In this document: positions 1 to 55,083 of the stretch, piece after piece
Position numbering within the stretch: position 1 is the first letter of the stretch
How the letters are laid out: the number at the start of each line of letters is the position of its first letter
Assembly (NCBI RefSeq): GCF_964188315.1
Contig: NC_135661.1
Span: forward strand, 58,466,001-58,530,000
Length of the DNA: 64,000 nucleotides
Direction of reading: 5' to 3'
Source of the DNA: Podarcis muralis
Taxonomy: Eukaryota
The notes under the pieces: generated by a model
Database searches by the model: none
The model's input: the letters and a program-made list of their open reading frames with translations, nothing else
What the model was told of the DNA's origin: nothing
Position numbers and translations under genes: made by a program

Positions 1-1299
1 ACATGCATCCCCTGAAACTGGAGCTGAAATTGTGTGGATGTGCCCATCCAAATTTGACACGCACAGACTTTTCCAACTTCCTTAAGTCGACACTTAACTT
101 AGAACTTAAGTAAGATGCAGAAACCAAGCCCAGAGTGATGAACCTGAGCAGTGTTCATCTGACCTCCTGGCAGCAGAGCTGCTGCTGTTGCTTACAAGGA
201 AGAATGGGGAGATCATTGCTGGGCAAATGTGCTGGCTGAGCCGATATGGCACTCCTGTCAGTGGATCTGCATAACAGAAACCTCCTCACCTCTTCTGCTA
301 CTGGGCCTCAGAAACCAGATGTTGCTGCCTACTCTAATTATTATGCCAACTTGTAATAGTCACTTGTAGAGAGTTCAGATCTCCTCTATTCAGGGAAATT
401 GTTAACTGGAACACTTGGTGTGGTGTTGCACTTTTTAATGTTCTCACTGTGCCTGCAATGACCACCAGTGTGCGAGAACAGGTAAGTAATTTTTGCAGGA
501 CAAATGTTTGTGGGGGTAGAGAGATGCACAACTTCAGTCCTCCTCTGCAAACACACATAGAGTTTCATCTAATGTATGAAGACTATCAAGAGTAGCTATT
601 AATACCACTTTGATATCAATGCAGAGGTAATAAGGATAAATAATCCAAAGTAAAAGCCAAAGATGGTTTTGGGGTTTAGAGGAAGCAGCACAGCTCTAAA
701 AGGCTGTAACAGGGATGATCTTCCCATGCAGAAGATCCCAGGTTAAATCCCCAGAATTTCAACACATTGGGTTTCAGGTATCAGGGCTGGGAAAACCCTC
801 TGCCCAGGGCCAGAAGGTCCACTAAGGTAGCTGGTATAAGGAAGAGATAGAGAAGCTGTGGCCCTCCAGATATTGTTGGAGTACAAGTCACATCACCCTC
901 AGCCCCATGGCCAAAAATCAGGGATTATGGAACTGGGAATCCAGCAACAAGTGACTGCCACGTTTCCCATCCCTGGTATAAGGCAACAACTTGTATCTTA
1001 CTACACATTCAGAAGTAAAATAATTTCAGAAACCGCCAATCTGTCAGAGTGACTACCCATGCAAACATTCTTTACTGTTTCATATTGTTACTCTGCAAAA
1101 TTAGCCCAGGAGTGCACTTGTCATGCTGTGTGAACAGACTCAAAAAGAGGTTTGAACGCCCAGGAAGACCTCAATAAAAGCCAAGTAGAAGTTTATCAAG
1201 GGCGGGAATGTAAATTTAGAGCCACACAGGCCCTCAAAATACTCCTAATATCCACCTTCTGATGTACTTATCACGACTCCTGGGAGCAGAAAGCAAAGC

Positions 1300-2460
1300 C
1301 CCGAATGCCGACAGGGACACCGACGGCGGGCCTTCCTAGCCCACAGAGGGGAAAGGAGACGGACACCTCACAAGCGCTGCCTCTTGGCGCGAGATGGAGC
1401 ACCTCGCCCGTAGGGAGGAGAACTGGGGACACCTCACCCACCCGCCCCAAGGGATGGAAGGGCTAGAACTGGGGCCGAAGCCACGCCGGCACGGTCGGAA
1501 TACCTGGAGCCAGGGGCGTGGGCGCCGGGGAGCAGCAGTGAGAGCTGCCGGAAAGGGAGGAAGAAGCCGAGGAGGGAGAATCGCCCGACGACCCGCCCTC
1601 CTGTTGGGTTATTACCGTATATATCTCCCCTCACATACAGACGTATCGTGAAGGGCTGGCACTTCTCTCCTGCCTCAAACTCAGCCGCGGAGGGAGACGG
1701 GGGAGACTCCCTCCTCCTGCTGCTTAGAGGCGGCCCAGAAGGGCAACAGAATACAGCCCCGGCCTCAGCGGAGCCCCCGCCCCACCTTCAAGGGACGGAG
1801 CGCGAAGGCCTCGCTGGAGCAGCGACGCCAGAGGCCGGAATGGGGTGCGGAGGAGACCCGGGAGAGAAGGGCCGAAGAGGCCCTTAAGGAAGGGAGGAGA
1901 CCCTCTCGCCGCCCACCCCGGGAGCCCAGAGAGGGGGAGGGAGAGGCGCCCGAGGAGGCGCCCCATGCCCGGCGCAGGCCCTCCCCGCCGAGCGCTTAGC
2001 CTCACCCATGCCTGCGTGCGTCCGTCGCTCTCTCTTCCCTCCAAAGGCGGCGGCAGCGGCGGCGGCAATATGGCGGGCGGGGCCGGAGCGGTGGGCCAAG
2101 CGGACGCGCCGGGAGGCGGAGGACGGGGCCGAAAGGGAAGCCGACGGCGGCCGAAGCGGGACAGAAAGCCTCGGTGGCACCGAGCGCCCGAGACCGGCCC
2201 CTTCCCTGAGCACGCCCCTTTTTTAAAGAGACAGTTGGGCGGAGCTGAGGGCGGGGCGTGGGGAGGTGGGCGGGGCGAGGAGGAAGAGGCCGTTTTGAGA
2301 CCGGGACAGGGCGCTTCGGGCGGGATGCAGGAGCGGGTGAAATCCCGGCGGGGCAAGCCGTGGCAGCGAAAGGAGACGGGCATCTGGTGGCCGTTTCGAA
2401 GGAGGCAGTTTTTGTTGTGGCCTGAATTCCCTTAGGGGAGGAGAGCCCGCTTCCTCCGCT
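1300..2460 (-). promoter_or_regulatory. CpG island and promoter of a minus-strand housekeeping-type gene
   Basis: Very GC- and CpG-rich. GC boxes (GGGCGG) at about 2236-2275 and a YY1-like CGCCATATTG on the minus strand at about 2066-2075. Boundaries approximate. Confidence 0.75.
2006..2009 (-). CDS. Candidate 4-nt coding first exon (ATG G|gtgag) of an unidentified gene; remaining exons would lie left of the window. Resembles KPNA5/KPNA6-type exon 1 from memory only
   Basis: Minus strand reads gcaggcATGG|gtgaggc: ATG at 2009-2007, donor GT at 2005-2004, inside the CpG island downstream of the YY1-like motif and GC boxes. Confidence 0.4.
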
Positions 2461-2644
2461 GCGTAAAGTGATAAGACGGGATGGGTGTATTTGTATTTGA
2501 CGAGAGTCAGTCCGTTAAATTAGTCGATTTCAGATATTCTGACCGTTTCGGAAAGAGGCCTCCTCCCCCCCACTAGTTAATCAGTGCTTTAAAAATACAA
2601 GAACTTTAAGCACCATCACAAAATTATTTCCAGCAATATAGTCC

Positions 2645-2822
2645 TGTTAGCCTCTTGCACCACAAAGAGTCTTGTGGCACCTATAGGCTAACAAATTTAT
2701 TATGGTATAACCTTTTGTGTTGCTCTGAATTATAGGTCAGAACATTATGCATCAGCTGAAGTTGACCGTAGGTCATGAAATCTTGTGCCACAACAAATCA
2801 TTTACCCTTTCAAGTTACCACT
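2645..2822. mobile_element. Penelope-like element terminal-repeat remnant (inverted pair)
   Basis: AAGAGTCTTGTGGCACC..GGCTAACAAATTTATTATGG followed by an inverted degenerate copy (TGCATC..GAAGT..GTAG..GAAA..TGCC..CCAC). Matches the reptile PLE terminus pattern as I recall it. Confidence 0.6.
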
Positions 2823-3554
2823 CTGTCACCTAAAAAGAGACATTCCTCCTCCTCCTGGGCAGGAGGGACCATCTCTTCTAAGATGAAGACTGTACACATA
2901 GAATCTAAAAATAAAAAACTCGCAACTTTTTTGAAGTGCCTCTTTCGAAGTGAAGTAAAAAACAGCTAAAGACTGCAGTATTCAGTTGGGCACTAGCTCC
3001 TTCCTTTATTAGAATATTTTGTGCCCACCTTTGGTACCCAAAAACAGAATACAAAACAGAGCATCTATTTAAAAATGGGGTGGGGGGGGTGTTGCACATG
3101 TGAAAGGCTATGAATGCAAAGCCACCTGCCACCCACCAGGGGGGTCTCAGCAAATGGTTGTAGCATTTAGGCAGTCTCCTGTGTGGCCTTTTAGATACCA
3201 ATTAAATGGTACAACAAACTGGCACCCAGTAGAGCTACTTGAGAACAAGTTTGAAAAGTTCATTTCAGCTGGGCCAAGTTATTAACCTCACTACTGTATT
3301 TTGAACTGGCAGAAGTTTCTCAGAAGTCTGCAAAGACAGCCCGTTATGTAACACACTGCAGTAGTCTAGCTTGGAGGTTAATAGTGTAGACATATATGGC
3401 TCAGATTATTTCTGTTGCAGAGTGGGGCAGTTTAGATGGGGATCATTTTATGTCAGATGTGCTACCTGGATTGTCTTTAATGAAGTAGAACTTTATCAAG
3501 TAAATTAAAAATCCAGTAGCAATATTGGATGCACGAAGAGCTTTTAAAGGAACT

Positions 3555-4345: not shown

Positions 4346-6706
4346 TCAGGTGGTTCGTGGCCTGTGGCTCCCACCCATGGCAATGTAGACGTCAATGGGG
4401 ACGTTGGGCAGGGTCAGGCAGTGGCACCCTGGACATCTTCGCAGCTGCCTGCCCAAAAGACAGAGAGAGTTGATCCCTGCATTTGTTAGGAGCTGCATAT
4501 TCATATGCACTATGCAAAATGAAATGTGTCCCAGAATGTCATTCTGTTTAAAATAAAATAAAATCCAAGTTCCAATTTCAAACAGAACTTAGGTGCTCCA
4601 CTTCACTAACACAGGCAATCGTTTCCATGTGTGGAGCTAGTAAGTGGGTGCAACTCACCAGGACCCATGATGGGAGGTGCTCAAGACAAGGACAGATTCC
4701 TCTAGTTATCATTGTTGCACCAAGTCTTACCTTTGGGGACACATTTAGGAAACCACTAGGAGCAGCAGAATGGGAAGGGCTGCTTAACACAACCTTTCCC
4801 CCCTCCCCGCCCCCCTTGATGTTTTGGACTACAGCTCCCATCAACCTCTGATTTGAGTTGTAGTCCAAAACATCAGGAGGGAACCAAGTTGAGGACAGCT
4901 GGATATTTGCCTGCACAAGCCCCACCGGACTAAATGAAATATATTAATTAGCACATGGCAGGGTGGGGGGAGATACAGATCTGGATTTGCCACTTCAGGC
5001 ATCAAAACATTGTGGGCCAGGGGAACGTCAATTCCAGATTTTCCCATCTACCTTCAAAATGCTGCACAGAGAGCGTGACAAAGCACAGTACAGTTGTTGT
5101 TGTTGTTGTTGTTAATCATCATTATTTATATTTGGATCCCACGTTTCCTCCCAAGAGATCAAGGTGGCTTACCTGGTTCTCCACTCCCATTTTATCCTCA
5201 AAACAACCCTGTGAGTTAGGTTACAGTAGGCTGAAAGTGAGTGAGTGGCCCAAGGTCACCTAGTGAGCTTTATGGCTGAGAGGGGATTTGACCCCTGGTC
5301 ATAGTCTTATACTTTCTATTGCCTGTTAGTTTCCCTACCACCAGGAAAATAATATATTTTATCCACTCCACACATATTTTCTTGACCATTTCTATCCCTC
5401 ATCAGCTAATTTATTCTAACAGCCCTTCATCTGGTCTCTGCATAAGCTGCAGTCAGGCTGGCAACTGACAACTGTTGACTGAGCCCTGTGAGGTTTGCAT
5501 ATGACTAGAGGTAATTTGCTGCTAAATTACCAAAGGACGATCCAGAGCAAATTTAGTGTCATTTCTTCTGCACTGCTTGATGGTTTGGGTGTACAGTGGT
5601 ACCTTGGGTTAAGTACTTAATTCGTTCCGGAGGTCCGTTCTTAACCTGAAACTGTTCTTAACCTGAAGCACCACTTTAGCTAATGGGGGGTCTCCCGCTG
5701 CAGCCGTACCGCCAGAGCACGATTTCTGTTCTCATCCTGAAGCAAAGTTCTTAACCTGAGGTACTGTTTCTGGGTTAGCGGAGTCTGTAACCTGAAGCAT
5801 CTGTAACCTGAAGCGTATGTAACCTGAGGTACCACTGTAACTAGTTCTGTCCACCCATATTTTCAGAGGCAGATTCCCTCATACACTTGCCTGCTCGATG
5901 CAATAGAAGACGGCTTAGCACCTGCACTCCACAGAAAGAGGAGGAGTGGCAGTTTAGGGAAACAGGAACCTGCCTTTTTTGAAGTCCATCTAGCCCATTA
6001 TCATCTATGCTGACTGGCAGTGGCTCTCCAGGGATTGAGGCAAGGGCAGTTTCCAGACCTGCTTGGCTATAAGGAAAAGGTAAAGGTACCCCTGCCCGTA
6101 CGGGCCAGTTGTGTCCGACTCTAGGGTTGCGCGCTCATCTCGCTCAAGAGGCCGGGAGCCAGCGCTGTCCGAAGACACTTCCGGGTCACGTGGCCAACGT
6201 GACGAAGCTGCATCTGGCAAGCCTGCACCAGCACAGCACATGGAAACGCCGTTTACCTTCCCACTATAAAGCGGTCCCTATTTATCTACTTGCACTTAGG
6301 GGTGCTTTCGAACTGCTAGGTAGGCAGGAGCTGGGACCGAACGACGGGAGCTCACCCCACCGCGGGGATTCGAACCGCCGACCTTACGATCAGCAAGTCC
6401 TAGGCACTGAGGTTTTAACCACAGCGCCACCCGCGTCCCACTCTTGCTTGGCTATAGCAGAGACTAAACCTGTGACCTTCTGTGTGCAAAGGAAATGCTC
6501 TTGCCAACTGAGCTACCACAGCCCTTCTCCTTCAGCTGTGGTGCCAGGGCTGAATCCTGCCTGTCGCACTGTGAAACATTTCCTTACCTTGTTGCAGTGC
6601 GCTCAGGGGCAACTGGCTCCTGTGTTTCGGGGGCAGTCGCCAGGCTGGGAGAATCTCCTGCCTCTATTGGAAATCTCCGAGCTTGTGGGGTCTCTTGGGA
6701 GCTCAT
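4346..6706 (-). CDS. FAM229A: FAM229A small protein, 73 aa, 2 coding exons (6706-6588, 4448-4346)
   Basis: Translation MSSQETPQARRFPIEAGDSPSLATAPETQEPVAPERTATR|QLRRCPGCHCLTLPNVPIDVYIAMGGSHRPRTT* carries the FAM229 motifs RRFPIEAGD and LRRCPGCHCLT..VPIDVY. Phase-2 junction AG|gtaagg ... tttgggcag|G. Lies head-to-head with TSSK3 as in mammals. Confidence 0.93.
4817..4875. mobile_element. Palindromic core of a hAT-type MITE (GACTACAACTCCC family)
   Basis: Arms TGATGTTTTGGACTACAGCTC and GAGTTGTAGTCCAAAACATCA. Confidence 0.6.
5096..5300 (-). mobile_element. MIR/Ther1-related (Squam3-like) SINE
   Basis: CCCATTTTATCCTCAAAACAACCCTGTGAG..TGGCCCAAGGTCACC..GGGGATTTGA, with a (GTT)n/(ATT)n tail at the left end. 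Confidence 0.6.
5594..5837. mobile_element. Tc1/Mariner MITE
   Basis: TIRs CAGTGGTACC / GGTACCACTG, TA target duplication, internal AACCTGAAG repeats. A near-identical copy lies at 46939-47163. Confidence 0.85.
5985..6525 (-). mobile_element. Older tRNA-derived SINE interrupted by a Sauria SINE
   Basis: Left part GTCCATCTAGCCC..CTGACTGGCAGTGGCTCTCCAGG; right part ACCTGTGACCTTCTGTGTGCAAAG..CTGAGCTA. Boundaries approximate. Confidence 0.55.
6075..6439 (-). mobile_element. Sauria SINE (Squam1), full length
   Basis: Minus strand starts GGGACGCGGGTGGCGCTGTGGTTAAAACC, has box B GGTTCGAATCCCC and ends in (ACCTTT)n. 12-bp TSD TGCTTGGCTATA at 6060-6071 and 6445-6456. Confidence 0.93.
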
Positions 6707-38780: not shown

Positions 38781-38817
38781 ACCTTTAAACCAATACACAG
38801 AAATATTTCCTTCCCAT

Positions 38818-39536
38818 TGTTACAGGAAAAATCTGAGGGCTCCCTTGGACAAAAATAAAACACCAACCAGAGCAAATTGAAGCAAATCAGCAGCCTGTAG
38901 GCCTGGTCTTTATTGAAGAAAGACTGTCGCGACAGGGTGCTCCCCTCACTCGCAGGTGAGAGGAAAGACCCAGAAAAATAGTGTGCAAGGTCTTATAAAA
39001 ACTTTTGAAATTCCCCTCCTCTAGGTCAAGCCCACCCCCCAGAAACATCATGCATATATTACAGAAAGGAGGGGTTGAGGGAGGAGTTGGTGGTAACCTG
39101 AGTATCTTGTCACCTGGCTGGTTCCTCCTTTCCCCCCTCCCCATGAGTCACTTCCAGGAGACAAAGGGGAGTTTGCAGTTTCCTGCCCCCTGAGGGAAGA
39201 TCTGATCATTGTCCTTTGTTTCAGTCCATGCTGAATCCACTCCCATATGCAAGTTCTTTGTGGTCTTGATTGTCTTCTGTCTGGGATCATCTGGGCAGGG
39301 CTCCTGCAGATGTGCTGAGACAGTGAAGGGATTTTGGCTGACCAGGGTCAAACCCCCCTCCCCTTTTGTTAGTTCTTGTCATATGGAGTAAAATAAAAAT
39401 GGAACAGTGCAAATCCAATGTATGGTTGATTTTCTATGAATTTATAACAGAAATGTGGCGTATGTAGTGTGTGAGTGTGTGTGTGTATGAAGTTTGTACA
39501 AGCAGAATGATTGGGGTGGGGGGGGTTCCTGCTACA
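38818..39536 (-). mobile_element. 3' LTR
   Basis: On the minus strand TGTAGCAG..TGTAACA; TATAAG at 38997-38992, AATAAA at 38914-38909, AP-1 TGAGTCA at 39144-39150. Confidence 0.92.
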
Positions 39537-39548
39537 GTTCCCCCCTTC
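39537..39548 (-). other. Polypurine tract
   Basis: Minus strand GAAGGGGGGAAC directly before the TG of the 3' LTR. Confidence 0.8.
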
Positions 39549-41602
39549 GGAGATAAGATTGCAAAGGTGGCTACTTTGCAATCCTTTTCTCCGCACAATT
39601 TAAGGTGGTAAATATTAACCTGCTATTCTCCATGTGTCCATGTGAACGTGAAAGGGACTTGGATGTCATGCTTCTTAAGGATATTTGCATAGAAATATAA
39701 TGGTGTAACAGTGCACATAGTTAGACGTAGGATATCATGTAAAATTAATATTTTGTTGCTCAGTTACTTGTGGCATTCTAGTACCTTGGAAGAGATATTT
39801 TCTCAATAGTGGCGTATGCTTTACATTTAGCAGGAAGGTCCACTAATGACTGAAAAATGCAGTTTGCTTTGTCCCCCGCCATTTTTGTGTTCTCAGGTGT
39901 CAAGGTAGCTCTTCTATGGTCTCACACCAGCATGGTGTCACAGCAGTGGCAATCCCTGGTGAATCCACTTAGGGCTTTCATATTAACCATGTTGTCTGGC
40001 ACTCACCACAGCTGGCACAGGTTTGGGCACGTCCTGAGGGAAATGTCTTCGCCTTGGCCAGTCTATGGGATTTTTTTATTATAGGCTGTGGTCTTGCACT
40101 CATGGGACGTTGCTCACTTGCACTTAAAGGACCAAAAGCTAATTGCAGCCTGGATACACTTGCCCAATTCAAACTGAGTCCAATTTGAATTTATCTTGCC
40201 CCATGGTTCTCAACTTTTCAAACCAATCTGTTAAACCCATTCTTAAAGGGCACTTGTCCAAATAAGTCAATTTAACTCTATAAGGGATTATTCCTACTAA
40301 ACCAAAGCATATCCACCTTCATGTATCTTAGAAGCTTCTCATTAGTAAAGCGAGTTTTAGCACATTTTTTAAATGGGTAGGGAAGGTTGGCATAGTGCCA
40401 GGTAGAACAACGAAATATGGTTATAAATTTATCTAATTCTAAACATTGGACTACATAATAGCCTGGTCTCTTAAAAGGCATAAAATGTTTGAGAATCCTC
40501 CACTGGGTTGTAAGGAATAAGACATTAAACATAAAAACAATTATACAGAAAAATAGGCCCAAAAATAGCCCCCCCCCTTTGTGGAAATCACACTGTCAGA
40601 CACATTTCAACATTCCTACATAATAACATATAATACAAAACAAACTAATTAAATATCAGTTGCATATCTTGACACAATTGTGATCTTTTACGTATGTATC
40701 TTTTGAATCCTGGAGCACAGAGGCTTGAGTTTCAAAAGTGAGAAAATGTCCTTGCAATTCAACTCCTCCCCCCTTTGTCAGCCCCACTTCCCCTTTGAAA
40801 GAAATTGCTGTGGCCACTTTGAGAACTTTGGCGTCTGTCGTTGCTGCTGCAGGTAATAGTCTTGTGGTGGCGAAGCTTTTCCTTGGATCTGTAGTAGCAC
40901 ATCTGTAGAAGTGATATCCTGTAAGGGGCAGGGTTTTGGAGACTTAAAAGACAAGAGTTAGAAAAGAAGGGGCAAACACTTTGTTAATGGGGTTCACATA
41001 TCCTGTTAAAAGGGGAAATTATTTCATGTGAGAAGTCTGTCAGGAAATGCTGTTCCTAAAATGCATAGGCATATACACACACACACACAAAAACTGTTAT
41101 AAAATTTAAATCCCATTGGGGAGGCAAACTACTCAAGAGAGGAACTCACAGTGGGAGTGCTTTGATATTTACCTGTGAAAAGAAATCAGCATGTCAAGAC
41201 CTGAAACCTGGCAACCTCTTGACCCTTGATGGTCCAGTACCCAACCCCTTTGTCTTAATTAGCCCCTAGAGCAAAAGACACATCAAGGATGATCTCCCCC
41301 AATGGTTCCAAGTTCTTTTCATAAGGAAATTTGGATAAGCTTCTCCCTGCAGGCAAGCTCTCAAAACCTCCTCTCTCCACCCTACAGTTCCCCCTCCTTC
41401 CTCTCTCTCTCTCTCTCTTTTTTTGACTGATCTAGCCTCTGTGTATGTGCAGAGTTCATGTCTCAGCAAACCTTTTATACTATTGAAAATGTTGCATCCT
41501 TTGGCTAAATTACCATTTGAATAAGGGAAGGAAAAGGGTAAGGAGTAGATTTTAAAAATAGGGTTAGATTTTAAAACAAAAAGGGGAAACTCAGCAATTC
41601 AA

Positions 41603-41760
41603 GTATTCACCAAAGCTAGCAATTGCAGCCCAAGCAAAGGACTGCTTCCTTTATGTACAGGAAAGGGCTAATATCCCTCTGGTATTCACCAAAGCTAGCA
41701 ATTGCAGCCCAAGCAAAGGACTGCTTCCTTTATGTACAGGAAAGGGCTAATATCCCTCTG
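41603..41760. repeat. Perfect 79-bp tandem duplication inside the LTR element
   Basis: GTATTCACCAAAGCTAGC..GCTAATATCCCTCTG twice (41603-41681, 41682-41760). Confidence 0.93.
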
Positions 41761-43900
41761 GCTATTCGTGGAACAATGCCACGCCCTTATATATGGGGGA
41801 AATGGCCAGAGAGTCAGAATTCATAGGATTTTATTAATATTATTATTATTATTTTAAATATTCTCAGTCATTTCAGCCACACCATTTGCAGACAAATTTT
41901 TTCCTGCCCTTTATTTACAGGATTGGTCAAGGCCCCCATATGTATTTGTATGTGCTTAAACTTTGAATTGACTCTGAAGTCTGATCCCCCCCCCAATGAT
42001 AAACACTGTAATCAGCTTGATATTACCAGTTGTGCTTCAAAACATCACAGCTTCACCTCTCACCTTTTAAGACTAAAGAGCAAAACTAGGCTGAATTTCA
42101 ACTCCATCAGCACGCCAGAATTTAAGAATTACCCTCCAATGCTTGCAGACACATGTTCCTTCCACACAGCCACAAATTGGGAGAGTTGAAAGAGACCCTG
42201 GGGTCATCTAGTCCAACCCTCCAAATATAGAGTTCACAGCAAGATTCCACAGCAGGATTTGTACTATCAAAGAGACATACACATTTAAGTACAGGTTTAC
42301 AACTGGGAAAGGAAACATCTATGCTCCTATCATGTACTAAGGAAGAGGAAAATAAAAGTACCCAACTTTACACAGAACCCCTTTTAGCAGATCTTGAGAT
42401 AGTTTGAGTGAGTTTGCTTCCTTAGACTAAAGAATGCAAGTTCTTAGAGAAATTATCTTTAAAGGAAGATTGAAGTGAACATTTTTCCTAAGATAGGGAG
42501 AGGATCTCTTATAAAGCAAAGTTAATTCAATCGATATAACCACTCACAAATAATTAAAACAGCCATAGATTTGATTTAAAGGGAACACAAAAGTGAATAG
42601 GAAAGTGAGATGCAGGGTACCTTGGGAAAGATTGCTCCCCCCCTCTTTGCAGTTTCCTTTAAAGGAAGCTTACTCGGGAGTAAATTTACCTGGCACAGAA
42701 GTAAGAAGGGAGGAAAAAACTGAAACAGATAGAATGAAACAAGGGGGGGCATTTTCTGAGAAAAGAGGCCAAGAAGTCTTATAGAGACTGATATTTGGAC
42801 TGGACTCATAGAATTTTGCTAGCCATGGAAGCCTCTACATTTAATAACAATTTTCTTAGAAAGAACACCATCCTTTCATAGGCATGTGCTTAATGAAATA
42901 CATACACTGCATTTTAGCTTGAGAGAGCAGTTGGCTCAACTAGGCTTTTGCAGCAGAAACATTAGGTTTTTTTCACAGCACATTTCAAAATACTGAAACA
43001 AAAGACTGGAACACGGATGTAGACTCACAAACTCAAAAGTTACAACAAAACATCATTTACCACTAGACTTAAAATCACCCTCCTCTTTTAAACTAGTGGA
43101 AGGAGGGGAGGTAATCCTCCTTTCAGAACACAGGTAGCATGTATACAGGATTTTACCACTTGGGAGGAAAACTCTTTTTTTTAGAGCTTTTCTCAAATAA
43201 CAAACATTTGCACACTTCATATGTAAATACAAACCCTTGGAATATTTCTAAATCCTTGAGATCATCTCTTATTCATTTATTATTATTATTTTATTAACTA
43301 AGATCTCTAATGCGTGGGCTCTCAGGCTGGGCTGTTATTATATCTACTGCCTTCTGAGCACCATTAAGTTTTCATTTTATGTTCTAGCTTTAGGTCATAG
43401 TTTAACAACACAAATTTGATGTTTTCAGCTCTCCCTATGGGTTCACACCCTGATTTTGTTGAAGGATCCCTGAGGTGGCTGCTGTGCCCTGGGTTCCAGG
43501 TGGTGAGCCTAAGCCACCCACTAAAAGTTACAACGGTCTCATACTTTGTACTTGAAAGACCATATTGCCCCTTTTTTATTTTTATTTTTTCCCCAATTGG
43601 AGATGACAAGCTGGAGGGGCATATTAGAATCCTCTCTGGGGCAAAAAGGCTTCATGGAAGCTTTGTTGCCAGGAGGAGTCCAGCTAGGGTGTTTAGTGAG
43701 CTCCCATTCTCTCATATGTTATTATTGGGCTTTTTTTCCGTTAACGAAGTACACTAAAGACAGAAAGAGTGGAAACACACACACAAGGGAGGAGGACAAT
43801 GGGAAGAAAGATTCTTTCAGTATTTGGAGTATCCTTGACTTAACACAATCCCTACTTATTTCTTGACCACAAATTATTTGCTGAAAACGTCAAGCCTGAA

Positions 43901-44051
43901 CGGAAACCTAAACCACGGGTCTCTGCCCGGAAACCTTAACCACGGGTCTCTGCCCGGAAACCTTAACCACGGGTCTCTGCCCGGAAACCTTAACCACGGG
44001 TCTCTGCCCGGAAACCTTAACCACGGATCTCTGCCCGGAAACCTAAACCAC
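43901..44051. repeat. 27-bp minisatellite (about 5.6 units)
   Basis: Unit CGGAAACCTTAACCACGGGTCTCTGCC; it explains the GNLNHGSLP and WLRFPGRDP repeats in the ORF track. Confidence 0.95.
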
Positions 44052-44315
44052 AGCACTGTTTTTTTCAAGACTAACCCTAGTGTGGGGCCCCAATTGTGAA
44101 CCTCCCCTCTACCTTCCACAACAGCCTCCTGCCTAGCCTTTGGACTAAGTTCAGATTCCTTACTGAACGCCTGCGCAGTGCAGTGCCAGATCAGGACCCG
44201 AGAAAACAAAGTTTTGAAAGGAAACAAATGACCTTGCGTTCTCACGTACCCGGGTCATCCCTAACGAAGGTCGCCGGGCAGGAGGGGCAGCTTCATTTGC
44301 ATAAACAGGGAAAGC

Positions 44316-44564
44316 AGAGAGAGGTTTGTAGGGACGCCCCTGGACGACTCCGAAAAAGGACGTCAGAGAAACAATAAGCACCACGTTCTCCTGGCCACAC
44401 TCCGAGAGGAAAACGGGGGAGAAAAAGGAGAGAGAGATTTGTAGGGGACGCCTCTGGCAGACTCCGAAAAACGACGTCAGAAAAACAATAAACACCACGT
44501 TTTCCTGGCCACACTCCGAGAGGAAAACGGAGAGAGAGAGAAAAGGAGATTCAGGATTTGTAGG
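44316..44564. repeat. Imperfect 113-119-bp tandem repeat (2 units plus a partial third)
   Basis: TTTGTAGG recurs at 44325, 44438 and 44557; units share GACTCCGAAAAA.GACGTCAG..CACCACGTT.TCCTGGCCACACTCCGAGAGGAAAACGG. Confidence 0.85.
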
Positions 44565-44868
44565 TGTAACGTTGGAAATAAAGGAGAAAAGTCCGGCTGT
44601 TGTGGAGACGTTACTTTCCACCCCCCTCCCAATGTATTTTCTTCAGAACCATACTCACGTTCGAAGATGTCCCCCGTGGATCCCAGGATCCTTTCCCCTT
44701 AGCCGGCTTGACCTTGCCTTTGCTTCCTCTAGTTGGGCTTTTGGTGACGATTGATTACCGCCCGCAAAGAGGAGGCAGGGAGAGGAAGAAGGATCCCGGG
44801 GCTAAGGTTGCCCAGTGGCGCCCGATCCCCTCTATCTCCCTCCTCACCTTTGCAGGAGAACCAAGTGT

Positions 44869-44886
44869 CCCTGAGAATGGTCGCCA
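44869..44886 (-). other. Primer-binding site, tRNA-Arg-like
   Basis: Minus strand TGGCGACCATTCTCAGGG begins 2 nt after the 5' LTR. TGGCGACCA..AGGGAC resembles the complement of the tRNA-Arg(UCG/CCG) 3' end as I recall it (imperfect match). Confidence 0.65.
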
Positions 44887-44888
44887 AC

Positions 44889-45607
44889 TGTTACAGGAAA
44901 AATCTGAGGGCTCCCTTGGACAAAAATAAAACACCAACCAGAGCAAATTGAAGCAAATCAGCAGCCTGTAGGCCTGGTCTTTATTGAAGAAAGACTGTCG
45001 TGACAGGGTGCTCCCCTCACTCGCAGGTGAGAGGAAAGACCCAGAAAAATAGTGTGCAAGGTCTTATAAAAACTTTTGAAATTCCCCTCCTCTAGGTCAA
45101 GCCCACCCCCCAGAAACATCATGCATATATTACAGAAAGGAGGGGTTGAGGGAGGAGTTGGTGGTAACCTGAGTATCTTGTCACCTGGCTGGTTCCTCCT
45201 TTCCCCCCTCCCCATGAGTCACTTCCAGGAGACAAAGGGGAGTTTGCAGTTTCCTGCCCCCTGAGGGAAGATGTGATCATTGTCCTTTGTTTCAGTCCAT
45301 GCTGAATCCACTCCCATATGCAAGTTCTTGGTGATTTTGATTGTCTTCTGTCTGGGATCATCTGGGCAGGGCTCCTGCAGATGTGCTGAGACAGTGAAGG
45401 GATTTTGGCTGACCAGGGTCAAACCCCCCTCCCCTTTTGTTAGTTCTTGTCATATGGAGTAAAATAAAAATGGAACAGTGCAAATCCAATGTATGGTTGA
45501 TTTTCTATGAATTTATAACAGAAATGTGGCGTATGTAGTGTGTGAGTGTGTGTGTGTATGAAGTTTGTACAAGCAGAATGATTGGGGTGGGGGGGGTTCC
45601 TGCTACA
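44889..45607 (-). mobile_element. 5' LTR
   Basis: Matches the 3' LTR at offset 6071 except 5 substitutions found by eye (45001, 45273, 45330, 45334, 45336). Confidence 0.92.
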
Positions 45608-45611
45608 CCAT

Positions 45612-45915
45612 TGACACCTAACCCACCCCGCGCCCGCTTTATCACAGCGCCTCAAGATGAGGGAACTACAATCCCCATCAGGCCATAGGCACGGGGCATG
45701 CTCTGTGGGAGGAGAAGGGTAGGGGGCGATGAAACCGCCGCACAGGCGCAGCTGAACTTGCTGTGCTAGCTCCGCCTTCTTTCGCTCGCGGCTGAAGCTG
45801 CGATTGGCGGCTGGCGATGCTCGGGGAGTTTGGGCGGCTCCTGCGAAGCGTGTGTCTATGTATGTGTGTGTGTCAGGCTAGGTAGAGCCGTGCAAGGCAA
45901 GGGACCGGCTAGAAG
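45612..45915 (+). promoter_or_regulatory. ZBTB8B: ZBTB8B CpG-rich promoter and probable non-coding exon 1
   Basis: ZNF143/THAP11-type ACTACAATCCCCA at 45665-45677, ATTGG (CCAAT box) at 45803-45807, CpG-rich, donor AAG|GTGAGC at 45916. Coding exon follows at 50464. Confidence 0.65.
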
Positions 45916-46938
45916 GTGAGCAGCACAGGGAGAATGGAAGCGGCTGCTACTGCGGTTTTTGGTGTCGCTGCTCCGCCTTTGCATTGAGGGGGAAGAGGAG
46001 GAAGCCTTTCCTGGCTAGCCGTGCGTGAGCATAGGTGGGCGCTGCCAGAAAGGGCCACTGCCCTTCTCCTTCTCCGGAGACTGCTGGACCTGGGTGGTAC
46101 CCGCCTCTTCTCCCCCCTCCCATTCCCCCCCCATTACAGGCTTAATGTGGGGGGGGGGGAGTATTGGCCCAAGAAGCCTATCCTCAGCTTCTCCTGTACC
46201 TGTGATATTTCATCTTCTGTAGAAATCAGTAGGAGGTGAAGGCTGTAATAACAGAGAGAGAAACCTTTTTGTCACCTGTGAGCGTCTGTGTGTCTCCAGG
46301 CAAAGGTGCTGTTTGCTGGGGTAACGGAGCAAAAAAGGGGTGGGGAAAGTTGGCAGTGCTAGAAAGACGTTGGAGCCAGCTTTGTATGAGAATTGCACCT
46401 TTCCTCCTTGTCCTTGTAGTTCTGGGAGAGAGGTAGTGGAAGCACCCGGTACCCTGGCTGCTCTTACGTCCTATGCTCCAAGGTTGAGATCTTATATCGA
46501 AAACAGTTGCCAGGGCTGAGTCTTGAATGACGCTGAAGAGGGTGCTTTCGTGTGTGTCTTTGGGACTTGCCTGCTTAAAAGGAGACCCGCTGGGGCTGAG
46601 TCTCTGTGGCAAGCATGTGTGCGGTGACCTGGAATTTCCCACTGAAGGCAGATTCTGGGTGCTCAGTAGGGAAGGGCAATCTGTACAAGCTCAGAGGCAC
46701 TGTCCCTATTGCTTAGTGGCACTGGACCAATTTGAGACATTTGAAGTGGGAGCTGGATGGCACTTATTTTGCAGGTTGAAAGATCCAGCCTCAAAGTGCT
46801 GGACTTGGTGTCCCTGAGCTTTACAGAGCTGTGATCTTGTGTTGCCTATGAAGGGAATTCTCCAGTGCTAAATTTCTAGGAACAAATATGTGTGGGCAGC
46901 TTGTGGGTACCTTGATGGTAAGGGGAATGCACTCTGTA

Positions 46939-47163
46939 CGGTGGTACCTCAGGTTAAGTACTTAATTCGTTCCGGAGGTCCGTTCTTAACCTGAAACTGT
47001 TCTTAACCTGAAGACCACTTTAGTTAATGGGGCCTCCTGCTGCCGCCGCGCTGCCAGAGCACGATTTCTGTTCTTATCCTGAAGCAAAGTTCTTAACCTG
47101 AGGTACTATTTCTGGGTTAGCGGAGTCTGTAACCTGAAGCGTATGTAACCCGAGGTACCACTG
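46939..47163. mobile_element. Tc1/Mariner MITE (same family as 5594-5837)
   Basis: TA|CGGTGGTACC ... GGTACCACTG|TA. Confidence 0.85.
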
Positions 47164-47335
47164 TACATGCTTTGGGGCTCTTTATTTTACTTCTTTTAAG
47201 TCCTTGCATTTCCAAAAGTGTGTTCTGTATTCATCATTTTGGTTTGGTCTGTGGCTGTATTGGCATTTTTCGTAAAAGGGTCCCATTCCATCCCCTCACT
47301 GTTTGCACACAGTGAGGGTGGGACAGAGGATAGTG

Positions 47336-47471
47336 TAGGCATAGGCAAACTTGGCCCTCCAGATGTTTTGGGACTACAACTCCCACCATCCCTAGCTAAC
47401 AGGACCCGTGGTCAGGGATGATGGGAATTGTAGGCTCAAAACATCTGGAGGGCCAAGTTTGCCTATGCCTG
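47336..47471. mobile_element. Young hAT MITE
   Basis: About 35-bp TIRs TAGGCATAGGCAAACTTGGCCCTCCAGATGTTTTG and its complement; perfect 8-bp TSD GGATAGTG (47328-47335, 47472-47479). Confidence 0.92.
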
Positions 47472-49751: not shown

Positions 49752-50463
49752 CTTTTAAGGGCTCCTAAAATATGTTAAATGGTGAAGGAGTTGATAGCCA
49801 GACTGGGAAATGCATTTTTCTGCCTGCAACTGTGGAGAGCATCTTTTGGACCAGACAGTAGTGAGCTAGAGATGAACCAGTTGTCCAACTTGTAATTGGG
49901 CAGTTCCATACATCAATAGATCATTGAAAGCCACTTTTAGCATAATGTGTGAATTGGCAATGCATGCTGACAAACCCCTGAATGGATACAATTCTCCTAA
50001 ATCAAGCCATTTTCAGACAATCTCATGCTGATTAGTCTGTGGGGAGATTAGACGATGTTGCATCAAGCAAATGTTATCTCACACGATTTCCTCACCACTT
50101 AACACAAAAAGTTCAAAGTGGGTTTGTTGTGCAAGAGCTCCAGAGCAACTTCAAATGCACTTCCTGAATTTGCCAATATTTGATTGAATCTCATCTGAAA
50201 ATAGCAGTAGTCTGAAAGCGCCCTAGTGTGCTCAGCTTCTGGTTGAGGTGATGTGTTCAGTATAGGTCAATGTAGATGGAGTATTCAGATTACTGGGTTT
50301 TTAAAGGTTTCTTGCCAGCATATGCATCAGCTGTTCTGGATGGGGTGGGGAGATACACTACTATGGGGAGGGACTGTGCACGAAAGGAAAGGCATTTCTG
50401 TGCTGATGTTCTGTTCCTGCATTTTCTTTCAGAGTCAAGAGGTAGTTCTTTGCTGTAGGAGCA

Positions 50464-53400
50464 ATGGAGATGCAATCTTACTACACCAAACTCTTGGGAG
50501 AGCTCAATGAGCAGCGGAAGAGGGACTTCTTTTGTGACTGTAGCATCATTGTGGAGGGGAGGATTTTCAAAGCCCACAAAAACATTCTGTTTGCCAACAG
50601 TGGTTACTTCAGAGCTTTGCTGATCCACTACATCCAAGACAGTGGCCGACACAGCACTGCTTCCCTGGACATTGTTACATCAGAGGCCTTCTCAATTATC
50701 CTGGACTTCCTTTATTCAGGGAAGTTGGATCTTTGTGGGGAAAACGTGATTGAAGTTATGTCTGCAGCCAGTTACCTGCAGATGACTGATGTTGTCAACT
50801 TCTGCAAGACATACATCAGGTCGTCACTGGACATCTGCAGGAAAATAGAGAGAGAAGCTGCCTTTTATCAGGCTGACAGTGGGAGCTCTAGTTCTGCTCG
50901 AGAGGGCACGTCGTATGGGGCAAAGAGCCAGTGCTCAGCGTCAGTTTCATCTCTGCAGGAGAAAGAGAGGGTTCCAGATTGCCAGCGAGACCCTCCCTGC
51001 GGGGAATGTTGCAGCTGCCACCCCATTCAGCTTGTAGTCCGGGACCCTGTAAGCAGTGACTCTCCAGATGACACAAATTCTTCACTGCCCAAAGTGGTAG
51101 AACCCAAAGTAGAGTTTGATGCAGACGAAGTGGAAGTGGAAGTTGGCGAGCGACTGCAGCAGTACCCAACACCGCTGACGATTGAGCAGATAGAGGAGGG
51201 GCTCCATAGTGGCCAGGCCATGGACCTGGCATGCAACAACTATCACATGAAGCAGTTTCTAGAAGCTCTGCTGCGCAACAGTGCAGCCCAGAGGAAGGAC
51301 GATGTGGTCCATCATTTTGTCCGCGGGTTTGAGGGTAGGCCAGAGGATGCAGGAGTGCCCATGAGTTCCGTGGTGGACATTCACAATGACTGGTATGGAG
51401 AGGATGCAGGTGAGATCAGATCCCATGAGGCTGGATGAGATTCTTCTGTTGCAGTGGATAGCTTTCTGGATGAAACTGTAGAAAGTTATACCTGCAAGGG
51501 GGAGCAAAGAATAAACATACATCCTGTTTTGATGACTTGTAACATTGCCTTGGCAGTGCACAGTACCAAGAGTTCACTTTCATTAGGGCCAACCAGAATG
51601 TTACAAAATCACAAGCAAGTTTTTCAGAATGGGCTGGATATTGGGCAAAAAGGGGTGGGGTGGGCAAGGGGCTGCAGGAGAGTAAAGGAGGAGGGTACAA
51701 TATACAAGCCTACAAATCTGCAGCATGTAACAGTCTTAAACTCGAGAGCAGAAGTCTGTTAACCAGACTGAATTAGCTGAGACTTTGCTTGGTGTAAAAC
51801 AGATTTCAGGTGGTACTGAGGACTGTTGGGGAAAAAAGAAGCAATTACTATTTGTCCCTTTATCTATATTTTAAAAGCCTCAAACAGTTCCCTGGGTCTG
51901 TCTCCAGCACCAAATGGAATGCAGGGGTCTTTTGTAAGCAGGTTAAGAATTCCATTGTGGTCTTTTTGTTAGCAAAGATGGAGAATAATTTTAGATGGTA
52001 CACTAAACAGTAATTCAAAGCCAAATTACGTGGCATCACTTCATGGTTGGAGGGCATATATAGCCTGCTGCCCCCCTCCCCAATGTCCTAGCTTCAGGTC
52101 GTAAAATACCTTTTTTCTTTCAGTTTGAAGATTTCTCTCCTGGAAGGTTAATAGAGTAATCCTATTCGAGTTTACTCCAAAGTAAGTCCCATAGAATTAA
52201 TTGCAGCAGGAAATTGCTGGACTGCAGACTTTTGGTAGAAATAAGCAGTGTTTATAACAAGCTTGAAATATCAAGCCTTGGGTGAACAGGCACAAACATC
52301 CTTATGAATAAAAAGCAAATTTTGTAGCATTTATTTTTTGCTGTTGATATGCAGAAAAATGGTTTGCAGTAGTATGTTGAGGCTGGGCAGGCTAGTAAAA
52401 AACCATGAAAAAGAAATGTTTGTTGACTCGGGCTTGACCTATGCAGACAGTGGAGCAATAAGAATCTCCCTGCGAGTAAACAGTCAGAACATCGGGAAGA
52501 AAGATTCCAGGCCTGCTAGCTATCACTTTGTGCTAGTTTTATACTTATAGGGAGTTGCATTTAGAAATGTTTTACCACCTGCAGCCTGAAGTAGTGCAAC
52601 CTGCAGGGGTAGTCCAGGTATCAGCCTTGTAAGGGAAGTTTGGCCTTAATTTCTGCCAGAATGAAATGGCCGACTATACTGCCTTGCTTCAGGCGTGTGG
52701 GTGAGGGTGTGTGAAGTATGAAAGCAACTTGATGCAAGTAGAAAGCTAGCATAACAGGTAACAAGCAGGACCAGAATCTTTCCTCCTGATATTTTTGTTT
52801 TCTATTTGCAGATTTTTATGTGTGCATTTTTCCAGGACAAGAGTTGCTATGTTTCTGTGTGGAATTTGGATGCATTTCCCCCAAAGAAAGCAATTCTTTT
52901 GCTGGGAGATTACATTTCCTTAGGTTCTTCTTGACCCAGCGCCCTCCAGCTGTTTTGGACTACAACTCCCTTGGCTGGGGTTGATGGGAGTTGTAGTCCA
53001 AAACATCTGAAGGCACCAGGTTGGAGGAAGGCTGCACTAAGTGAATTCCCACCACACCCTGATGCTGGGTCAGCTGTAGCAGTAGTGTTGTGTGGCATGT
53101 GTGTAACCTCCTCTTTCTCCCTCATATATTCTAAACCATAAAAAATGTGCTTTTCTTCAGTTACCAGCATTTTAAATTCTGACCCCTCTTCAAGAACAGC
53201 GAGTTGACACCTCTGAAATGCTTCTGTTTCCAAAGGTGATGTGCTGGTCGTGCCGATCAAGCTGCACAAGTGCCCATTCTGCCCATACACGGCCAAACAG
53301 AAAGGGATCCTGAAGCGGCACATCCGTTCACACACGGGCGAGAGGCCCTACCCATGCGAGATATGCGGCAAGCGTTTCACACGGCAGGAGCACCTCCGGA

Positions 53401-55083
53401 GTCATGCTCTGAGTGTAAGTCAGAGATGTGCAACAAGAGGCGAGTTAAAGAGGAAACTAAATTGTGGCGTGGCTGGTGCTGCTGTCACTCCCAGGACTCT
53501 GACAGCAGAATCCTTAACACCCGTTGATTTTAAAAAGCAGACTTCAACTAGTGCTAATACGCCCAGGAACCTCACCAAAATGCTGGAGAGGATGCACCTC
53601 CACAGGCACATACCTCCACATGTGGTGGGAATGTTCCAAAACCCAACTATTCTGGACAAGAGCCATACGAGAAATATGCAAAATAACTAAGCAAGTATTA
53701 GAAGTCACCCCAGAATTGGCCCTACTAAACATCTTCCAAGATAATAATGCCCACTACATCATAAAGAGCAGCCAGAATCATCATAGCCAGACACTGGAGA
53801 GACCTGTCAGGAGTAAGCATGGACCAATGGTACCAAATAGTATGGGAAACAGCCCTATTAGAAAAACTAATCAATAAACTGAAACTGACACGGGGACAAA
53901 TAGAAGAAGACGCCTTCACCCCGGTATGGCTCCCCTTTATCACATACGCAGCCCAACAAGACAGTGACAAGAATCCACCAACAGCATACGAATCAATATG
54001 GCTAACTTGATTCAAAAACACCCGCCCACCCCACTCACACATGAAAACAAAGTTCACCACAGCCAGTCACAAAAAACAGCCACACCCTAGGCCAATCCCA
54101 ACCTCTCTCACCACCAAACAAACACAAGCGAATAGTAAAGAGAACCCGCATAAGCAATGCTGGCACAAAACCTCACACATGCATTAAGTAAAATAGAAAC
54201 ATCGTCACCCAACTCCACCCCCACTCACCATGGCCCCCTCCACCTCTGTCCCCCTTTTCATCCTAATGTAACACTAATGTCTCAACAAATGAAACTGATC
54301 TGTAGAAAATGTAACTTGAAAATAGAGACATTGCACATAACTTTGTAAACCAAGAAATCTTTAATAAAAAATAAATTTTAAAAAGCAGAGTTCAAACCAC
54401 TTGTAGGGAACCTCTGCCCCCAACCCCCAGTATAATTGGGCCTGGCATGGCGCTGACTTTTGTCCAGGAGACGATTTTCTCCAAACTGATAGCCACCTGC
54501 TCCACACCTGGCATTGTATGTGGCAACCATTTTGACGTCCACTTTGTCCCATTTGCAGGTGGGGTTTGGATTCAGACCGCCCCTGGAAATGGACTTTTGC
54601 CCTGATCAGCAGTTAAATGGATCCCTTCTGAACCTTGATAGGTGGTTGGGGCTGCTGACCTGTCAAAATTGATCTGTGGGGAGTGCAGAGCCTGGCCAGA
54701 AGGCCAGATCCAGTTCAACCTGTCATGCTTGTGCCAGCCACTGACCCTTCCTGCTTTGTGTCATGATGCTCCAGGTCCATCGGTCAAACAAGCCAATCAT
54801 CTGCAAGGGCTGCAGGAGAACGTTTACAAGCAGCCTGTCCCAAGGCTTGCGCCGCTTTGGATTGTGCGACAGCTGCACTTGTGTTACGACTACGCACGAG
54901 GATTCGATGCCCATTAACCTCAGTCTGATGGAACCTTCGTCTGAAGGCCAAGAAAAGAGCGACCCAGACAACGACTGGCCCATCTATGTGGAATCTGGTG
55001 ATGAAAACGACCCCCCTGAAGATGATGATGCTGACCCTGATCCTGACGACAAGCAGGATCTCCATCGAGAAGCACTTATGTAG
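50464..55083 (+). CDS. ZBTB8B: Zinc finger and BTB domain-containing protein 8B, 477 aa, coding exons 50464-51409, 53236-53414, 54775-55083
   Basis: [26 protein letters not shown] (BTB domain); DWYGEDA|[60 protein letters not shown]|[22 protein letters not shown]. Phases consistent; total 1434 nt. Confidence 0.96.
52951..53005. mobile_element. Palindromic core of a hAT-type MITE
   Basis: Perfect 20-bp arms TGTTTTGGACTACAACTCCC / GGGAGTTGTAGTCCAAAACA with a 15-nt loop. Confidence 0.8.
53548..54379 (+). mobile_element. 5'-truncated L1/Tx1-clade LINE in ZBTB8B intron 3
   Basis: ORF2 C-terminal knuckle [15 protein letters not shown], then a 3' UTR and an AATAAAAAATAAA tail. TSD AAAAAGCAGACTTCAA / AAAAAGCAGAGTTCAA at a TTTT|AAAA site. 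Confidence 0.88.

Follow-up and report, generated by a model that had tools for sequence, protein, structure and literature searches.

How does an element without genes come to be copied, recently and many times, in a lizard genome? The question is raised by a long terminal repeat (LTR) retroelement of Podarcis muralis (assembly GCF_964188315.1, contig NC_135661.1). The element lies in a stretch of 64,000 nt (58,466,001-58,530,000), called the window here, whose positions serve as coordinates throughout. With a probability of about 85%, it descends from a class I endogenous retrovirus (ERV) as a non-coding element which has kept its LTRs, a tRNA-Arg primer-binding site (PBS), a leader, a broken gag stub and a polypurine tract (PPT), and which is likely copied with the Gag and Pol of coding, env-bearing relatives. 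The observations behind this reading are the ancestry of both ends, a young multi-copy family, 4-bp insertion footprints, ends copied from tRNA-Arg and a 3.5-kb core shared with another family. The non-coding family of the window element is named family 1, the second non-coding family is named family 2 and the coding class I ERV is named the partner. L-numbers (L001, L167 etc.) denote loci fetched from the P. muralis genome, and copy counts are lower bounds.

Structure, copies and age of the element

The element is on the minus strand: its PBS (44886-44867) lies near the right LTR and its PPT abuts the left LTR. Each LTR contains a TATA-like box and an AATAAA signal in minus-strand orientation. 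As described in an earlier note made from the sequence alone, the LTRs (both 719 bp, TG...CA) differ by five mismatches and zero indels, and the 4-bp target-site duplication (TSD) CCAT is present on both flanks. The Arg-like PBS and the PPT of that note were both found, the first 9 and last 6 nt of the PBS corresponding to the 3' end of a tRNA-Arg(TCG) gene, and its tandem arrays were recovered as repeats of 79, 27 and 114 bp. The interior (5352 bp) had also been called AT-rich; its GC content (42%, and 39.7% in the core) is indeed below that of the window (46.8%), but the effect is mild. The longest sense frame of the interior starting with Met has 84 codons. Six interior frames, with X at stops, gave zero Pfam matches above cut-off, and Rfam gave 0 matches on the element at E 0.1.

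Copies colinear with the interior, likewise non-coding and with identical LTRs, occur on many contigs, and the interior is therefore not unique host DNA between two solo LTRs. A family-specific 161-bp interior piece gave 47 candidates; 40 were scored and 40 matched. Exact LTR-PBS junctions numbered 34, against 0 in the control, and two of the 34 were coding copies. In the LTR search, 40 of 2015 candidates were scored and all matched at 92-100%; as unscored candidates, the 2015 are a hint only of many solo LTRs. Contig read depth was ~10-15 times higher over the LTR than over the interior, a ratio not usable as copy number. The genome search proposed in the earlier note had as its outcome ~40-47 interiors, solo LTRs and a coding class I ERV partner, and the family copies with near-identical LTRs support its description of a young, multi-copy, non-autonomous and helper-dependent LTR element.

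Age was read from 29 full copies, excluding the rearranged pair L003+L004 and copies with unparsable ends. The two LTRs were without mismatch in 17 of these and had at most one in 24. The TSD was a perfect 4 bp in 27 of the 29, and in nine of ten solo LTRs. By LTR mismatch, the window copy is among the more diverged. Three of its five mismatches are packed into 7 bp, and each of the two states recurs as a standing variant of the family (in 9 and 25 further LTRs of the fetched loci). This cluster is therefore likely due to recombination or conversion rather than age, and only two mismatches look post-insertion. If 1-3 changes per billion are assumed for each site and year, 2-5 differences place the insertion of the window copy roughly 0.5-3.5 million years ago, and most copies are younger. 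In an empty-site test, contigs from two DNA-like runs stopped in a simple repeat immediately beyond the LTR. No description of family 1 was found in the titles and opening lines of abstracts of the literature searched.

In three family copies (L001-L002, L019, L007), sequence has inserted close to one and the same interior site (element positions 2428-2472), which is possibly an insertion hotspot. One insert is a full long interspersed nuclear element (LINE) whose ORF1 and ORF2 are open, another measures 2.9 kb and has a LINE tail, and the third measures 0.5 kb. Two LTR pairs, spaced 13 kb apart, were considered as helper and rejected: the first is a family copy in which a LINE is nested, and the second consists of two separate rearranged copies.

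Coding partner, descent of the ends and primer-binding site

The exact 18-nt PBS was found at 29 places. Among the 20 that were fetched, seven are coding ERVs and nine belong to family 2. The coding ERVs contain frames of ~635-655, 1290-1300 and 690-700 codons with a single TGA between gag and pol. Domains above cut-off were Gag_p30, RVP, RVT_1, RNase H, rve and MLVIN_C, and env was matched weakly by TLV_coat (E 2e-6). A gag search gave 30 loci of this lineage, all of which were fetched. Partner LTRs are ~1090 bp long with 0-1 mismatch between the pair. The TSD is 4 bp in three of five parsed copies, and another matches at three of four letters. The 14-mer PPT preceding the 3' LTR is the same in the element and in all five parsed coding copies.

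A gag-stop-pol arrangement in one frame, Gag p30, a murine leukaemia virus (MLV)-type integrase C-terminus, a gamma-type env and the grouping of its reverse transcriptase (RT) place the partner in class I. Relatives of its RT are 92-95% identical in lacertid lizards and 47-55% identical in turtle, fish, newt and opossum. In a quick RT tree (midpoint root, without a named epsilonretrovirus), the partner stood outside the MLV-like clade (Shimodaira-Hasegawa-like approximate likelihood ratio test, SH-aLRT, 100) in the company of lacertid, snake, turtle, fish, newt, opossum and pigeon sequences. It is thus a class I ERV but, on this tree, not a gammaretrovirus proper (MLV clade). In UniRef/NCBI, unnamed Pol proteins of lacertid class I ERVs (P0001-P0003) are 92-95% identical to its RT region. 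These entries are automatic annotations in which no family description was seen, and they bear on the partner and not on the non-coding element.

Two stretches of the element (its positions 252-2150 and 6006-6095) can be aligned to the partner. Tiles from the LTR through the leader are 69-94% identical to the coding ERV and run into gag, similarity resumes in the last 66 nt before the 3' LTR, and the LTRs are 67-72% identical in their alignable parts. The 27-bp and 114-bp arrays are also found in the coding ERV leader. The earlier note had seen no gag trace; tblastn with partner Gag revealed a broken matrix stub at 43446-43703 (54-55% identity over 82-84 aa, E 1e-19), which Pfam alone misses. 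A partner-Gag-like stub was present in 22 of 27 family-1 copies tested and in 0 of 8 family-2 copies. By these alignments, the 5' part (LTR to gag-matrix stub) and the last 66 nt descend from a class I ERV. Since the leader, arrays and gag stub are of class I ERV origin, the helper would not be a Gypsy element; of the helper previously suggested, 'ERV or Gypsy', a class I ERV fits and Gypsy does not. 'LARD-like' (large retrotransposon derivative) is likewise a less apt label than that of an ERV whose interior was replaced, as in the ETn/recKoRV type. An alignment of the interior to decayed gag-pol, named in advance as grounds for rejection, extends over ~260 bp only, and ~3.9 kb is without coding trace. 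The element is read as follows, from its 5' to its 3' end.

45608-45611, unstranded: TSD CCAT, copy adjoining the 5' LTR
44889-45607, minus strand: 5' LTR, 719 bp, TATA-like box at 45063-45068
44867-44886, minus strand: imperfect 20-nt tRNA-Arg PBS, 2 nt past the LTR
43704-44866, minus strand: leader of coding-ERV descent, 71-94% identity per 250-bp tile
44311-44564, minus strand: 114-bp repeat in the leader
44116-44295, minus strand: leader patch common to both non-coding families and the coding ERVs, candidate packaging/dimerisation signal
43901-44051, minus strand: 27-bp array in the leader
43446-43703, minus strand: gag matrix stub, broken and containing stop codons, 54-55% identity to the partner Gag N-terminus
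43221-43445, minus strand: spacer specific to family 1, without match in the coding ERVs and family 2
39750-43220, minus strand: non-coding core common to family 2, 75-99% per tile; Pfam, Rfam and protein comparisons empty
41603-41767, unstranded: 79-bp tandem duplication in the core
40960-40976, minus strand: deletion scar, 863 bp lost between 17-bp direct repeats
39603-39749, minus strand: 3' spacer specific to family 1, basis of the copy count
39537-39602, minus strand: 3' untranslated end and PPT of coding-ERV descent, 82-85%
39537-39550, minus strand: PPT
38818-39536, minus strand: 3' LTR, 719 bp, AATAAA at 38909-38914
38814-38817, unstranded: TSD CCAT, copy adjoining the 3' LTR

The 863-bp segment absent from the window copy is present in 22 of 29 family-1 copies and in 21 of 21 family-2 copies. 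A 218-bp patch of the 5' LTR (44923-45140) is 78% identical to the family-2 LTR. The 180-bp leader patch, common to all groups, has predicted hairpins in which 9 of 37 pairs carry two-sided changes, a test with no control for relatedness; single-sequence z-scores were -0.9 to -2.4. On these folding predictions, the patch is a candidate packaging signal.

Both exact PBS forms are complemented exactly by the 3' ends of tRNA-Arg(TCG) and tRNA-Arg(CCG) genes of the genome. At 35 family-1 junctions, the PBS was the imperfect 20-nt form in 26, exact TCG in five, exact CCG in three and near-exact in one, and copies with an exact 18-nt PBS are spread over the family-1 tree. The 30 coding loci gave 18 of the 20-nt form (five with the window's own variant), eight exact TCG, three of CCG type and one unread. 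The common family-2 form carries a 4-nt duplication; 12 of 33 read junctions were exact, and these 12 were fetched because exact. Two pattern searches of the genome for a tRNA gene corresponding to the 20-nt PBS gave 0 matches and 1 match, the latter being another family copy. Retroviruses copy their primer tRNA into one PBS strand, and the exact forms are therefore footprints of reverse transcription with tRNA-Arg. Their scatter suggests that exact-PBS copies are dead ends. The same PBS pattern is reported for mouse ETn, MusD and IAP in parts of PMC7472051, where imperfect sites are proposed to evade 3' tRNA fragments.

Two other groups were tried as relatives and rejected. The ten top Gag_p30 ERV loci, with PBS that we take to be of His, Pro, Gly and Glu types, had zero DNA in common with the element. 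A sister coding lineage (eight loci compared) shared only a 38-66-bp patch and gave a weaker gag match. This sister lineage (L151-L166) counts at least 27 loci with several PBS variants, presumably of Lys type, which suggests a primer switch within one ERV clade.

The shared core and the explanations weighed

Family 2 is non-coding and has a different LTR; it was found at 43 junctions, mostly with identical LTRs and 4-bp TSDs. The core (39750-43220) is common to both families and has sharp common breakpoints: family-2 matches begin at element position 2388 in 18 of the 19 copies listed with a match there and end at 5857-5858. The family-2 leader matches the lineage of L167 (81% over 885 bp), as does its 38-codon gag stub (60-63% protein identity). 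L167 represents a third coding lineage, the donor of the family-2 leader, single-copy in the P. muralis genome and with an interrupted pol. The LTRs of L167-L168 are 99.8% identical, and the PBS is presumably of a different Arg type. No coding partner with family-2 LTRs was found among the 33 junctions read. Three trees were built from core segments; the families were mixed in two (at least two supported label changes forced) and separate in one, and cross-family core identity reached 97%. By these trees, core segments have been exchanged repeatedly between families 1 and 2.

In the mechanism we propose, the element would be transcribed from its 5' LTR and its RNA packaged by helper Gag through the leader, after which tRNA-Arg would prime and helper Pol would reverse-transcribe and integrate it. 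Template switching between co-packaged RNAs would have swapped gag-pol-env for the core, would keep exchanging core segments between the families and may have produced the 863-bp deletion of the window copy. The core would most likely be filler of suitable length, not a gene, and the imperfect PBS would likely persist because exact-match copies are silenced more easily. Four of the five features of a non-autonomous ERV of the ETn/VL30 kind were found, namely intact cis signals, absence of coding capacity, non-coding amplification and a coding relative with shared signals.

Several points weigh against this reading. Mobilisation in trans is what we infer from the shared PBS, PPT, TSD length, leader and distribution. 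The LTRs of the element and the partner differ in length (719 vs ~1090 bp), and their U3 regions are 67-72% alike with different starts; the direct parent lineage is therefore not among the copies seen, and the partner is a putative present helper. The tree on which the PBS forms were placed is poorly resolved and its bootstrap unsettled, and L072 and L087 are near-identical copies that both carry the exact CCG site. In the RNA run described below, only 25 of 399 reads were at least 99% alike to the window copy, so that the signal is that of the family. Contig ends are not favoured by family 2 (5 of 42), a point against a common integrase and a common history.

The alternatives mostly concern the core. 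It may be the body of an older retroelement, decayed past recognition and comparable to PhER, family 1 then being a recKoRV-type recombinant which would have taken the core from family 2. We regard this as a serious possibility, somewhat short of even odds, and it is compatible with the proposed non-coding ERV derivative, as it specifies the origin of the core only. It would account for the family-2 matches starting at element position 2388 and ending at 5857-5858 and for a purine run that resembles a PPT, with TGTAG after it, near 41381-41400 in the core, and exactly such a layout is described for recKoRV1 in parts of PMC6112702. It is opposed by the absence of any protein trace when the core was compared with 120 database Pol matches and all fetched ERV loci and frames; 17 coding ERV loci searched with the core by tblastx likewise gave zero matches, and the sole core match among the fetched ERV comparisons was a 40-bp piece of a common repeat (42179-42218). 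Moreover, family 2 derives in its turn from the third lineage, of which it keeps a gag stub, so that neither family is the evident source of the core. That the core is instead a selected functional RNA module (export, packaging, silencing-escape or long non-coding RNA) captured by different retroviral frames is unlikely. In favour of such a module, the core has held a length of 3.5-4.3 kb in two young families whose LTRs and gag stubs differ, in more than 70 copies, and it is exchanged between families and transcribed on one strand. Deletions of hundreds of bases are nevertheless tolerated (family-2 copies retain 1028-3416 of 3861 nt, and 863 bp are lost in the window copy), Rfam gave zero matches, and a nested LINE fragment is compatible with an intact-LTR copy (L089+L019). 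A related and also doubtful idea, if perhaps a shade less so, is that selection acts on the core as a selfish cargo of non-coding RNA, moved between two retroviral shells (one near-extinct here), with the imperfect PBS kept clade-wide to escape silencing by tRNA fragments. If true, it would extend the priming-versus-silencing trade-off of the mouse to reptiles.

A small accessory protein encoded in the interior, for example by the 84-codon frame at 40281-40532, is very improbable. Fifteen of 35 copies, from both families, have this frame at 65 codons or more, but it is broken or missing in the other 20. Core deletions do not keep the frame (multiples of three in 3 of 13, 12 of 49 and 5 of 27), and Met frames of at least 60 codons are common to at most 19 of 35 copies. 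The 84-codon frame had no homologue and no Atlas match, blanks which prove neither absence nor novelty. Least credible of all are a Gypsy-mobilised LARD, two solo LTRs around unique host DNA and a provirus decayed in place. Some Gypsy groups make 4-bp TSDs, and the TSD taken alone would permit them. The interior is multi-copy and colinear, however, and both ends and the gag stub are those of a class I ERV; decay in place is ruled out because the identical LTRs leave no time for it.

Genomic setting and likeness to known systems

In one raw RNA run (12% of the run), 20 of 21 interior bins were covered at a mean depth of ~2. The reads were ~10:1 on one strand, which is the sense of the element if the library is of the usual stranded type. 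A position within 3 Mb of a contig end is far commoner in family 1 (17 of 32) and in the partner lineage (14 of 30) than the expected 7.9%; for an unrelated ERV the count was 5 of 35. Candidate causes of this clustering are an integration preference or selection. Of single background tiles, 6-9% are CpG-rich; the flanks were so in 7 of 29 family-1 copies and in 2 of 21 from family 2, a difference that is not convincing.

The 5' LTR of the window copy abuts a CpG-rich stretch (45608-46100; observed/expected 0.82 in 250 bp) with a motif near 45663-45676 that we take to be ZNF143-like. About 5 kb further on, a BTB exon and a C2H2 exon lie on the plus strand (50446-51438, 53217-53690), presumably of a ZBTB8B-like gene. 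If the CpG-rich stretch is a promoter, the element stands head to head with that of a BTB zinc-finger gene. The copy is a few hundred bases from this promoter-like stretch and may affect the host gene if polymorphic. Short repeats with terminal inverted repeats, similar to miniature inverted-repeat transposable elements, were noted near the element (5590-5839, 46935-47165, 47337-47470).

A separate burst (G000; L029-L032, L039-L040) comprises over 100 class I ERVs of the genome that are nearly identical to each other and unrelated to the element; they have an open gag of ~648 codons, LTRs of 1.3 kb that are 99.8-99.9% identical and a PBS presumably of His type. The ERVs L021-L022 and L023-L024 are 91% alike over gag-pol and differ in LTRs and PBS (which we take to be of Pro and Glu types), another sign of end swapping.

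Among known systems, mouse ETn/MusD is similar in being a non-coding family moved by a coding relative with the same primer tRNA, and ETn has two subtypes (ETnI, ETnII) that differ over a portion of the LTR and over an interior 5' segment, as set out in parts of PMC1331978 and PMC2265474. The commonest ETn PBS is also imperfect, with exact-PBS copies scattered over the tree (parts of PMC7472051). In contrast, the lizard element is class I and uses tRNA-Arg, whereas ETn/MusD are betaretroviral class II elements using tRNA-Lys; its partner keeps env, which MusD lacks; its LTRs are ~70% like those of the partner, whereas those of ETn and MusD are nearly identical; and the 5' ends of the two lizard families come from two different coding lineages. 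Mobilisation in trans has been demonstrated for ETn, whereas we infer it for the lizard element. Koala recKoRV (KoRV-PhER) resembles the element in its construction: according to parts of PMC6112702, its 5' LTR, gag leader and short 3' end with LTR come from a coding class I virus, and its foreign non-coding middle is common to another multi-copy retroelement. The ends of recKoRV are near-identical to KoRV and very recent, whereas those of the lizard element have drifted 10-30% from the partner; the recombinant lineage is therefore old though its copies are young. Mouse and rat VL30 and plant LARDs have the same helper-dependent order of LTR, PBS, non-coding interior, PPT and LTR. VL30 is not known to derive from the leader of its MLV helper. 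LARDs are plant Gypsy-type elements; the lizard element carries a retroviral gag stub, and derivation from Gypsy was not found. It works like ETn/MusD and is built like recKoRV1, and it belongs to neither.

The structure itself is ordinary, as gene-less ERV hitchhikers are already known from mouse and koala. Its value is that of a complete young natural system outside mammals, with a coding partner and two parasites that have a common core. Dozens of near-identical copies, some with exact and some with imperfect PBS, offer a natural comparison: data on methylation, small RNAs and long reads could be used to ask whether exact sites undergo stronger silencing and whether the non-coding interior does anything.

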